A stretch of 62,974 nucleotides of DNA, the filler included, from Myxococcota bacterium (GTDB taxonomy: Bacteria > Myxococcota_C > UBA6777), in NCBI GenBank assembly GCA_023150835.1. It is 9 parts of 9 records of this genome, joined end to end, with 100 filler letters (N's around TTAATTAATTAA, not from the genome) between each part and the next. Parts side by side here need not be neighbours in the genome. Positions count along the whole stretch, not along the records: positions 16,195 to 27,049 come from JAKLKB010000215.1; 8 more parts are not named here. One strand, given 5' to 3'. Both the position numbers and the translations under genes were made by a program. Below, one piece after another: positions 16,033 to 54,792 of the stretch. Positions within the stretch are counted from its first letter, which is position 1. Each line of letters opens with the position of its first letter. The notes under the pieces are model-generated. The model did not search any database. It was given only the letters and a program-made list of their open reading frames with translations, and was not told the DNA's origin.

Positions 16033-16249
16033 ACGCGCTAGGTTAAGGTGGAAACACCGGATAGTCTAGCCTGATCGCCGTTTCTTTTGTCGCCNNNNNN
16101 NNNNNNNNNNNNNNNNNNNNNNNNNNNNNNNNNNNNNNTTAATTAATTAANNNNNNNNNNNNNNNNNNNNNNNNNNNNNNNNNNNNNNNNNNNNTTGGAC
16201 TGGTAGACAGAAACATCGGAGGAATGGACGTCTTGTGATGTCCCCTCTC

Positions 16250-24805: not shown

Positions 24806-25036
24806 TTACACGGCTTCATGATCTTCGCCGTCTTCGCTCTCCGCTTTCCCCATACCGCCCGCCATCTCCGTTAATTCACCTTGCTGATTCACAATCCCTG
24901 CCCGAACGAGAGTCGCAAACTTTTCTTTCTCTGTCAGTCGGTCAAATGATTCCATCGCTTTCAAGTGGAAATGATATTCCTCACTCCGATAATAATCCCA
25001 TTCCTTCGGGAGCTTTCTCTCCTGTTGGCTGCTCAT
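24806..25036 (-). CDS. small hypothetical protein, possible antitoxin
   Basis: 76-aa acidic ORF overlapping the 3' end of the upstream gene; LVRAGIVNQQGELT. Confidence 0.6.
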   Translation of the reverse strand: MSSQQERKLPKEWDYYRSEEYHFHLKAMESFDRLTEKEKFATLVRAGIVNQQGELTEMAGGMGKAESEDGEDHEAV

Positions 25037-25646
25037 CCTTTTCTCCTTTCGCTACACGTGGCCGAAAATAGCCTAAAATACACGAAGGATCACGAACTGC
25101 GATCTGAAGATGATTTTTGCTCTGAAACCCAGAACCTTCATAAGCTGCCTCACCTTCCACAAAGACCCCTCGCACAGTCTGATAATACGACGTACCCCCA
25201 TACTCCGCATCCATCCATTCTAAATACCAGTTGAGATAAGCACAATCCCGATACCGAAGCAGGATATCATTAGTGAACCTTTGGCCTCTCTTGTTCTCTG
25301 GCAACGGTTTGCCTGCCGCTTCAAAAATGCCCTTAAACCTCGGCCAAGCCATCCGTAGCTGCTCCGTGTGATACACATCTGCAAGATCAAAACAACGACC
25401 AAGGTGGATATACGCCCCCAACACAAAGGGAGTCTCCAACTTCCCCCGCTCTTTCTGCTCAAAAGCAAAGTCCCACGCACGACGCGGCCCATACTCCCAA
25501 AAATACACGCCCTTCCCCAACCAATCGTATGTATTTTGACTTGGACGCAGTTCTTCACCTTCCATCAACACACGTTCCGCTACACTCTTCTCGCAACCAT
25601 GATAGCCCACAATCAACCGTTGATAACCCCATTCTGGCGGTCTCAT
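24981..25646 (-). CDS. hypothetical protein with ADP-ribosyltransferase-like motifs
   Basis: IVGYHGC...SQNTYDWLGKGVYFWE...HLQIAVR resembles the YHG / GxGxYF pattern of H-Y-type ART folds; ATG 25646 after GGAGAG. Confidence 0.55.
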   Translation of the reverse strand: MRPPEWGYQRLIVGYHGCEKSVAERVLMEGEELRPSQNTYDWLGKGVYFWEYGPRRAWDFAFEQKERGKLETPFVLGAYIHLGRCFDLADVYHTEQLRMAWPRFKGIFEAAGKPLPENKRGQRFTNDILLRYRDCAYLNWYLEWMDAEYGGTSYYQTVRGVFVEGEAAYEGSGFQSKNHLQIAVRDPSCILGYFRPRVAKGEKDEQPTGEKAPEGMGLLSE

Positions 25647-25948
25647 CTCTCCAACCTCCTTTGCGGCTCTCCTCTCTCCCAAAGATACCGATCTATCCGC
25701 AGTATTTCAACCGCTACCTTTGCCACGCTTCAACGCTCGGCAGACTCGCCTTGTCACCGCTTGCGCCTCGCTCCTCCATCCGCAAAAAAGAAAACCCCTT
25801 GGGCGCTCAGTCGCTAGACCTACGGACGCAAGGGGCTTTCGGGGCGTTCTTTGTCCCACAATGGGGCGCGGGTAAGAGAAGATGGCCTGAGCCTTGTCCA
25901 CACAAGCGGCAGCCGTAACCACCGCCTCTCTGGGATGCGCTGAGGATT

Positions 25949-26062
25949 GACGACACGGAAACCGATGTTGTTGTTGCGGTTCGTCGGCGTGTTGTTGTTA
26001 CGCTGCGCCGCCCGCACGTTGTTGGCGTTGTTGTTCCAACTGCCACCACGTTTCACGCGGTT
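25949..26062 (-). ncRNA. DGR template repeat (TR) of CLec/FGE-sulfatase type
   Basis: 114 nt reading [38 protein letters not shown]; 13 of 38 codons are AAC; begins 11 nt after the RT stop; boundaries approximate without a VR. Confidence 0.9.
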
Positions 26063-26073
26063 CGTGCTTCTCC

Positions 26074-26472
26074 TTACCCTTTTTCGATCCCTAACAAACT
26101 CCGTCGCAACATACAAGTATTCGCCATCCGCGCATGACCCAACAGGCCGCGCATCCGACATTGCGCCTCTTCCTCGCTGATCTCCCCCAATGATTCCGCC
26201 CTCTCCACATCCCGCCAACCCCCGATAAACCGCCGCAAGGCTCCCTGCCCAAATCGTATCAAATGCGGATATACCCGAAAACCCAGAAAACCAAATCCCT
26301 CCCACGTCGGACACAAGCGCGTCTCGCTCTCCTTCAACCGCAGCCCCAGATGCTCCCGCAGATACCCCTCGATCTGCGCCTTCCACGCCCACATCTGCGC
26401 CTTGTCCTCCCCAAATAACAACATATCGTCCATGTACCGCAGATAACGCCGCACCGCCTTCTGTTCCCGCGC
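26074..26472 (-). pseudogene. DGR-type reverse transcriptase, C-terminal fragment
   Basis: [20 protein letters not shown]...[11 protein letters not shown]...[11 protein letters not shown]...[15 protein letters not shown] at 26425-26436; RT motifs upstream of YMDD absent. Confidence 0.88.
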
Positions 26473-26950
26473 TTTCCTCTGGCCTACGAAAAAAACCCAA
26501 CAACACATCCGCATAACGTTCCATACTCGCCTTGCCGAAGCCTTGGATCGCCTCCAACCCTGCCCGTGTTTCCGGCTTTTGACGCACAATCTCCATCAAC
26601 ACCTCATTGTTTAAGATCACAAACGCAGGGATCCCATCTTCTTTCGCTTGCTTTGCCCGCCAACGCCGCATCGTCTCAAAAAGCGCCTTGTCTTGCTCGT
26701 TTTCCAACTTCGCGCCTGCGCGTTCCCCCTTTCGCTCCTGCCCAGAAAAAATGCCCTGCCCTCCCCTCTTGCGCAAAAACGGGCTGTCCCGATACGTCAC
26801 CACCACGGCCATGCGCGGTACGCCTTGCTGCATGAAAAAATGTTCCTGCGCCGACAATATCTCGACTTCCTCCCCCAGCGCCTCCAACTCGCTGCTATCA
26901 AAACCGCCCGTCTCCGCATCATAACTTAAATTAAACACTTTCACCTTCAT
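26473..26950 (-). CDS. HRDC-domain DGR accessory protein; own stop lost, ORF reads on to 25820
   Basis: [18 protein letters not shown]...[18 protein letters not shown] plus [61 protein letters not shown]. Confidence 0.85.
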
Positions 26951-27149
26951 CCGCCTTTTCCTTTCTTTTCTACAAACCTACACCTTGATTCTTCCATTTT
27001 TGGGGGCCTGCCCCCAATCCCCCGCCATAGACTCTCGCCCCTTGACCCCNNNNNNNNNNNNNNNNNNNNNNNNNNNNNNNNNNNNNNNNNNNNTTAATTA
27101 ATTAANNNNNNNNNNNNNNNNNNNNNNNNNNNNNNNNNNNNNNNNNNNN

Positions 27150-54347: not shown

Positions 54348-54792
54348 CGACAAAACCTTTGAAGAAAAATGCGCTGTTTCGTAATACGAAATCCGCAGGG
54401 TGTGTCACCGTAACGGTGTAGGGGCAGCCCCCTGTGGCTGCCCAAGAATCGGGCGTCTACGCGATATCTTACGATCACACATCACTCGGATATCGTATAA
54501 GTCGAAAACGGCGCGTGTGATCGATTTTGGCGTTTCTACGCAGATCGAAAAAGCGAGTTCAAAAAAAACCAAAAAAGATTTTGCCCTCGATCGCTTTCTC
54601 ACAATTGACAACAAGCTGACAAAAAACCCCGTGTTCGCAGCACTTCAAGCGACAGGGTCATCAGTGTGAAAAACGATGCTGTCTTCGCCAAACACGGGGT
54701 CAAGGGGCGACAGTCTATGGCGGCGCGTGGTACCTCGCCCCACACAAACGAACAAACAAAAACAAATCAAAAGAAGAGGAGCGAAAGAAGAA

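Follow-up and report, generated by a model that had tools for sequence, protein, structure and literature searches.

The minus strand of the window (the whole stretch of DNA that was analysed, 62,974 nt in length, a chain of draft contigs joined by linkers of the form N44-TTAATTAATTAA-N44) carries, on the contig at 16195–27049, a bacterial cassette for targeted mutation, a diversity-generating retroelement (DGR), that appears to have been disabled by a young deletion of ~1 kb. According to this reading, to which we assign a probability of about 0.78, an ancestral chromosomal cassette of the target(VR)-HRDC-avd-RT-TR type would have lost ~1 kb that reached from the 3' end of HRDC into the middle of the reverse transcriptase (RT) gene, probably through a deletion that ran from one copy of an 8-nt sequence to the other, and the variable repeat (VR) would lie past the contig end. 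The deletion would have taken the tail and the stop codon of HRDC, the whole avd gene and RT motifs 1–4, including the fingers and the first catalytic aspartate, leaving over the HRDC domain, a palm/thumb remnant of the RT, the template repeat (TR), a structured RNA and a terminator-like end. The cassette is a disrupted DGR of an already published kind, and the event behind it is recent, ordinary gene loss.

Read along the minus strand, the cassette has the order HRDC gene, C-terminal part of a DGR-type RT, adenine-rich TR, structured RNA and U-tract, and every part lies at the place and in the order given by the earlier note. The HRDC accessory gene, recognized by Pfam, is represented by codons 1–165 (26456–26950), its own tail and stop codon being absent. 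It is joined directly to RT sequence through a deletion junction of 8 nt (GGTGCGGC on the minus strand; 26448–26455), common to both sides and placed by the limits of the contig matches of run X4 (see below). The RT remnant, delimited by alignments, extends from the YMDD motif to the natural stop (26074–26455) and lacks motifs 1–4; the RT sequence starts 6–9 codons before YMDD and not ~12 codons, as had been thought when the direct join was first described. Seven bases past the natural stop at 26074 begins the TR (25948–26067, 120 nt with 36 A), followed by the structured RNA (25802–25942) and by a long hairpin and a U-run (25784–25840) that, from the sequence and its fold, form a terminator-like end of the cassette RNA. 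A simple terminator scan returned 0 sites, despite the long hairpin and U-run visible there. At the other end, the ATG of HRDC at 26950 is separated by 99 nt from the end of the contig at 27049, in agreement with the ~100 bp noted previously, and the contig end itself is occupied by a high-copy repeat (26988–27049) that was detected by its summed contig depth.

The list of open reading frames also contains a 376-codon frame (25820–26950, minus strand) that runs through HRDC, the RT out of frame and the TR in its own frame, and in whose product both HRDC and an FGE-sulfatase tail are matched by Pfam. This frame is taken to be a by-product of the deletion, an accident rather than a gene. An HRDC-RT fusion protein was ruled out from the same list, in which the HRDC and RT frames differ. 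The neighbours of the cassette on its contig are housekeeping genes, namely those of the PheRS alpha and beta subunits, OmpH and a GH63-like hydrolase; the DGR is chromosomal and its host probably an uncultured Myxococcota bacterium from activated sludge.

Several features of the surrounding DNA were recorded. The gene placed after the cassette (24981–25646, minus strand), which encodes a protein of 221–233 aa, belongs to no Pfam or NCBIfam family; it gives a weak PADLOC match (PD-T4-9_A, E 3.1e-4, residues 10–55) and a non-significant PDB row, 'Exotoxin' (E 0.28). The first ~100 nt of this gene have a read-contig depth of 47 vs 13.6 in run X1, a pile-up that suggests paralogues, and no homologue of the gene was found adjoining the 80 related DGR loci described below. 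The 119-nt stretch at 25644–25762 is present in only two copies by depth in X1, with no other copy in the window. At the edge of the next contig (27150–27375), ~25 tandem 9-nt units (CTTTCCGCA, then CTTTCCGTA, minus strand) run into the N linker, forming a minisatellite.

A closer inspection of the two truncated genes showed that the HRDC domain is intact in the ORF that starts at 26950 (Pfam E 2.3e-17, residues 88–151). The sole protein match found for the HRDC protein was a 174-aa HRDC protein (P0002) with 38% identity, and no locus was retrieved when genome contigs and metagenome contigs were searched with it. In the RT frame, Pfam RVT_1 is matched only at profile positions 146–205 of 205 (the last 60 positions) and below the cutoff (E 2.8e-4). 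The remnant aligns to residues 224–344 of a 352-aa RT (P0001) and to residues ~205–335 of the full-length relatives, which measure 320–360 aa. It therefore corresponds to the C-terminal ~127 of ~340 residues, about one third of the enzyme, and not to the half that had been estimated. A complete, catalytically competent RT is not encoded here, motifs 1–4 being absent, and the part that is left keeps 10 of the 10 invariant columns of the alignment of its relatives (A1). Those relatives are distant; one match of 39% was found among longer proteins, and none of the best 150 RT matches among 1.84 billion cluster representatives exceeds 48% identity.

The assignment of this remnant to the DGR RTs, proposed from the sequence alone, is supported from several sides. 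The best solved relative is a 328-aa chain (PDB 8UB7, E 1.3e-7), a group II intron maturase being found at E 1.5e-4. The chain was identified as Brt of Bordetella phage BPP-1 through a phage record with an identical aligned string, and the remnant shares 30% identity with BPP-1 Brt over residues 208–315 (E 3e-12). The full-length relatives carry LPIGNLTSQ (IGNLTSQ) in motif 4, and the IGNLTSQ motif marks DGR RTs. In addition, adenine-specific TR/VR pairs were found in 55 of the 80 related loci, at least 75% of the mismatches falling on TR adenines. Clustering with group II intron or retron RTs, which would have spoken against the assignment, was not observed: the model TIGR04416 for group II maturases gave 33 bits against a cutoff of 300, the retron models match relatives only and below cutoff, the group II and DRT models of the libraries used, which contain no DGR-specific RT model, gave scores far short of their cutoffs, and no Rfam family was matched in 24900–27049 at E up to 1. 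Two of the RT relatives (P0006 and P0032) are annotated ~100 residues too long and end in threonine/proline-rich tails (TATTGTPPTATSTSAS); these tails seem to be the TR read in the ACA frame, the gene calls running past the RT stop region into the TR.

Of the 36 adenines of the TR, 35 occupy codon positions 1–2, and 13 in-frame AAC codons are present; the 114 nt, 34 A and 13 AAC codons counted in the earlier note for 25949–26062 are exact. With 14 AAC, the TR is the AAC-richest 120-nt stretch of the window (mean 1.9, sd 1.6, 99.9th percentile 11), and the peptide it encodes matches the C-terminal end of FGE-sulfatase (Pfam profile positions 210–254 of 255, E 4.6e-6). Its limits were set where the VR-like contigs of four sequencing runs cease matching, the contigs of these runs (X1, X4, X7 and X10, from four studies) having been placed on 24900–27049. 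The stretch that follows is also preserved. In the relatives, a hairpin stands just after the TR, with compensatory changes in 8 of its 8 predicted pairs, and is followed by conserved single-stranded blocks, a second hairpin and GACAAA(U/G)A. A covariance model built from 21 relatives, with the window left out, matches the window over its full length at 25802–25942 (36.4 bits, E 3.5e-8); this is the sole significant match, the next best in the window having an E of 0.3. With this structured RNA, a Spacer-like cis element, the DGR has kept a component that was already known and not a new one.

Because Avd and RT motifs 1–4 are gone, the cassette would be unable to make cDNA in cis, judging from what is established for Brt-Avd. 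It is conceivable, if on balance unlikely, that the locus still works in another way, its TR-plus-Spacer RNA being used in trans by the Avd-RT of a paralogous cassette in the same genome while the targets keep diversifying. Every cis RNA part checked is kept (the TR, the structured RNA and the 3' end of the RT upstream of the TR), and DGR parts acting in trans are documented (PMC5758913, PMC10907252). Moreover, one contig per run matches 26868–27032 (83 nt at the start of HRDC together with the 82 nt upstream) with ~10 differences and then diverges. The depth of this contig tracks that of the main locus in the four runs (12.1 vs 13.5, 9.13 vs 9.99, 19.2 vs 16.1 and 13.6 vs 11–20), which points to another locus of the HRDC type in the genome. 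However, only ~165 nt of the second locus are seen, and the VR-like contigs listed are near genome depth in X1 (16.7 and 18) and X7 (23.1, 15.3 and 18.6), a weak hint of fixed VRs, these depths being taken from the contigs listed only and contigs hiding rare variants.

A further contig of genome-like depth (1364 nt in X1, 1307 nt in X7) repeats, with 94% identity, the final 18 nt of the TR and the next 155 nt (25794–25965). In this contig the copy is placed 972 nt downstream of an 87% copy of 25644–25762, which precedes the gene for the 233-aa protein. Either another TR module or a product of VR x TR recombination, with a target gene fused to a TR-type flank, may be represented here.

The extent of the loss was assessed by comparison with 80 related loci from named genomes, retrieved with a 5-sequence RT alignment, in which HRDC homologues were located by tblastn with the HRDC protein of the window or P0002. 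An HRDC homologue is present in 45 of the 80 loci, upstream of the RT where listed, and an avd homologue in 59; both are found in 35. The order HRDC-avd-RT was confirmed in 33 of these 35, the other 2 being flagged only for overlapping alignments, and the gene placed between HRDC and RT is bAvd (PF22296, E 3.5e-16). Relatives with both accessory genes have the overall order target(VR)-HRDC-avd-RT-TR, and in the HRDC group the TR is located after the RT and the VR upstream of HRDC. No avd was found in the whole window. When these relatives are projected on the window, the gap from residue 165 of HRDC to the start of the RT sequence has a median length of 976 nt (range 886–1261). Measured against them, the window lacks the end of HRDC with its stop codon, avd in full and RT motifs 1–4; the loss of the HRDC stop and of the N-terminal part of the RT, already noted, stands but is larger than described, as avd has gone with them. 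No relative above 48% RT identity was found in the protein or contig collections searched, and the ancestral state is therefore drawn from distant relatives.

The same comparison accounts for the missing target. In 25 related loci the VR ends 94–381 nt upstream of the HRDC start. No VR was found in the window (blastn, word 7), as the earlier note had stated, because the contig ends 99 nt upstream of HRDC, at the usual place of the VR; a target gene that carries the VR should lie a short way beyond that end. The repeat at 26988–27049 has a summed contig depth of 358–1071 vs 6–20 for the neighbouring DNA in the four runs (~36–66 times), and is the likely cause of the assembly stop before the target gene. 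This repeat is short, G-rich and dispersed, with a 28-nt copy at 54696–54723.

Several short VR-like contigs were found in all four runs, matching 25948–26067 with 13–23 differences and diverging at both TR ends. Over the whole of 24900–27049, the changed places fall on a plus-strand T (a TR adenine) in 29 of 62, 20 of 35, 31 of 65 and 29 of 77 cases (47, 57, 48 and 38%), T representing 24% of the stretch; the T excess has a binomial P of 8e-5 to 5e-3, in counts pooled over 2150 nt with paralogous contigs included. Four of the five best-supported changes listed inside the TR are at T. Read only in part, these contigs look as VRs of this TR would. When metagenome contigs were searched with an unchanged, adenine-free 17-nt piece of the TR, at least 120 matches were obtained; of the 120 listed, 4 were at contig edges, and no cognate VR was present among the 116 that were scored, the best non-A identity being 0.85 and the median 0.45.

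The VR borders of the relatives share a further trait. In 25 HRDC-avd loci (in L002–L072), the homology between TR and VR stops at AGG(A/T)C on the VR side, the TR having AGC or AGT (examples of the DNA that follows the VR are L015:4210–4260, L072:4401–4450 and L040:844–890). By eye, many VR flanks display two or three tandem T-rich units of ~8 nt (CTTTTACC-like) within ~10 nt, and several a GC-rich hairpin further on. The VR flank in the read contigs of the window species resembles this T-rich flank of the relatives, which could be a target-recognition element of the HRDC-avd DGR group.

The locus stretch is present in runs of 9 studies, mostly of sludge and wastewater. In X1, a contig of 1256 nt identical to 25794–27049 (0 differences) crosses 26448–26455 at a depth of 13.5, that of the flanking DNA being 13.6. 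In X7, which belongs to another study, a 1119-nt contig placed over 25851–26969 with 8 differences crosses the same positions (depth 16.1, flanking 18.1). Both contigs extend for several hundred letters on each side of the junction. With these contigs, the direct join between HRDC and RT is confirmed as real DNA. The window was probably assembled from X1, in which case X7 would be the single independent run for the junction.

The contigs of X4 present a different arrangement. The contig on the RT side matches 26030–26455 (3 of 426 letters different) and continues into 114 letters unlike the window, and that on the HRDC side matches 26448–27049 (0 of 602 letters different) after 381 letters unlike the window. 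The two matches overlap by 8 nt at the junction, no X4 contig crosses it, and by simple arithmetic the X4 bin depth of 8.84 is that of the two broken contigs alone. In X10, one contig ends exactly at 26455, which would fit a branch between two forms, and among the X10 contigs listed none crosses the junction. The flanks of X4 and X7 differ from the window by <1%, and therefore the deletion varies in one species-level population. A deletion that varies among populations of one species is accordingly supported, the deleted form being seen in X1 and X7 and a longer form in X4; contigs drop rare variants, and a minority intact allele is possible in X1 or X7. From their position, the extra letters of X4 are presumably avd and the N terminus of the RT, and the longer form would be the intact ancestor.

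The description of the locus as a recently switched-off DGR consequently holds as regards a real deletion that varies within the species, and falls short as regards its size, which is larger than noted and includes avd. The absence of decay in the TR and in the remaining RT frame was also correctly observed; it had been regarded as unusual, but nothing unusual preserves them, and they look undecayed because the deletion is young.

The order of events could in principle be the reverse, with the deleted form older and fixed and the extra X4 sequence inserted later, for instance as a mobile element with an 8-bp target duplication, from which the 8-nt overlap of the X4 matches would also be expected. 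This is very improbable, as the break is located exactly where ~1 kb of cassette genes is missing with respect to 35 relatives, an insertion at that exact base would be a coincidence, and the X4 flanks are too close to the window, with only the 0 of 602 and 3 of 426 different letters mentioned above. Least credible of all is a chimeric or collapsed contig in place of a real genome with the full cassette, for although the metagenome bin is a fragmented one, the contig breaks off in a repeat 99 nt further on, and TR/VR repeats often upset assemblers, such an artefact is largely refuted by the separately assembled contigs of two runs from two studies that cross the junction at flanking depth, and an 8-nt overlap is, by reasoning, too short to mislead a 31-mer graph.

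A young deletion in a formerly complete cassette has its closest precedent in Thiohalocapsa sp. PB-PSB1, a natural population in which the RT is disrupted in some of the chromosomal DGR loci (Dore et al., PNAS 2024, PMC10907252). In that organism, other cells carry structural variants in which the RT is intact, and trans use of the parts of another locus was proposed (PMC10907252). The window cassette shares with those loci the disrupted RT and the chromosomal location, and the Thiohalocapsa targets carry C-terminal VRs of the CLec/FGE type (PMC10907252). In contrast, transposons are linked to the evolution of the loci there (PMC10907252), whereas here a plain ~1-kb deletion with an 8-nt overlap has removed avd, and the host is probably a Myxococcota bacterium of activated sludge. 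The words HRDC and Avd are absent from the main text of that article. A literature search on truncated RTs with a deletion gave nothing on natural decay in the article texts available beyond this precedent, whose kind of remnant could also be listed in supplements, and a search on DGRs in Myxococcota returned no article.

HRDC-containing DGRs were catalogued as 'Architecture C' in the survey of Wu et al. (NAR 2018, PMC5758913), with HRDC in 14 of 372 DGRs and avd in about half of these as well. The view of HRDC as a known class of DGR accessory gene is therefore well founded, and the window, with its intact HRDC domain inside the cassette, resembles the members of that architecture (PMC5758913). 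Treponema denticola, the type of Architecture C, has its HRDC gene between the TR and the RT (PMC4891356); unlike it, the window cassette and its relatives have HRDC ahead of the RT, the order being HRDC-avd-RT in 33 of the 35 relatives with both genes, and the TR comes downstream of the RT in those with an identified TR/VR pair. The DGR of BPP-1 has the order mtd-avd-TR-Spacer-brt, and Spacer-type RNA elements occur in 207 of 278 Avd-type DGRs (bioRxiv 10.1101/2023.10.23.563531). As in BPP-1, the adenine-rich TR of the window leads into a structured non-coding RNA, in which one stem-loop adjoins the TR and adenosines come after another (bioRxiv 10.1101/2023.10.23.563531). The window cassette departs from BPP-1 in having the TR after the RT, an extra HRDC gene, a target domain of the FGE-sulfatase type and a chromosomal rather than phage location, and in the deletion of Avd and of the N-terminal two-thirds of the RT.

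For the family, the comparison made here changes the weight of HRDC. Of the 80 nearest RT loci, 45 have HRDC and 35 have both HRDC and avd, far more than 14 of 372 suggests, and as an accessory gene HRDC in MAG-derived cellular DGRs seems to be much commoner than the figure of the 2018 survey. The HRDC-avd-RT order (33 of 35), with the TR and the conserved RNA after the RT, is common in cellular DGRs of Myxococcota, Bdellovibrionota, Thiomargarita and others.

For the organism, the locus is a DGR caught shortly after a disabling deletion, in itself of little weight, and it illustrates that, in a draft genome, an RT fragment beside a perfect TR can be genuine and need not be blamed on the assembly. 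The deleted samples (X1 and X7) and the longer-form sample (X4) offer a natural comparison for the diversification of targets in sludge and for service in trans. A more ambitious view, which we consider doubtful, is that the deletion is a natural off-allele, the intact allele occurring in other wastewater plants, and that the Avd-RT pair of a paralogous HRDC-type cassette in the same genome uses in trans the TR-Spacer RNA that survives. If this were true, one enzyme set would serve two templates, and the deleted and intact populations could be compared for the effect of a DGR on the target repertoire in nature.
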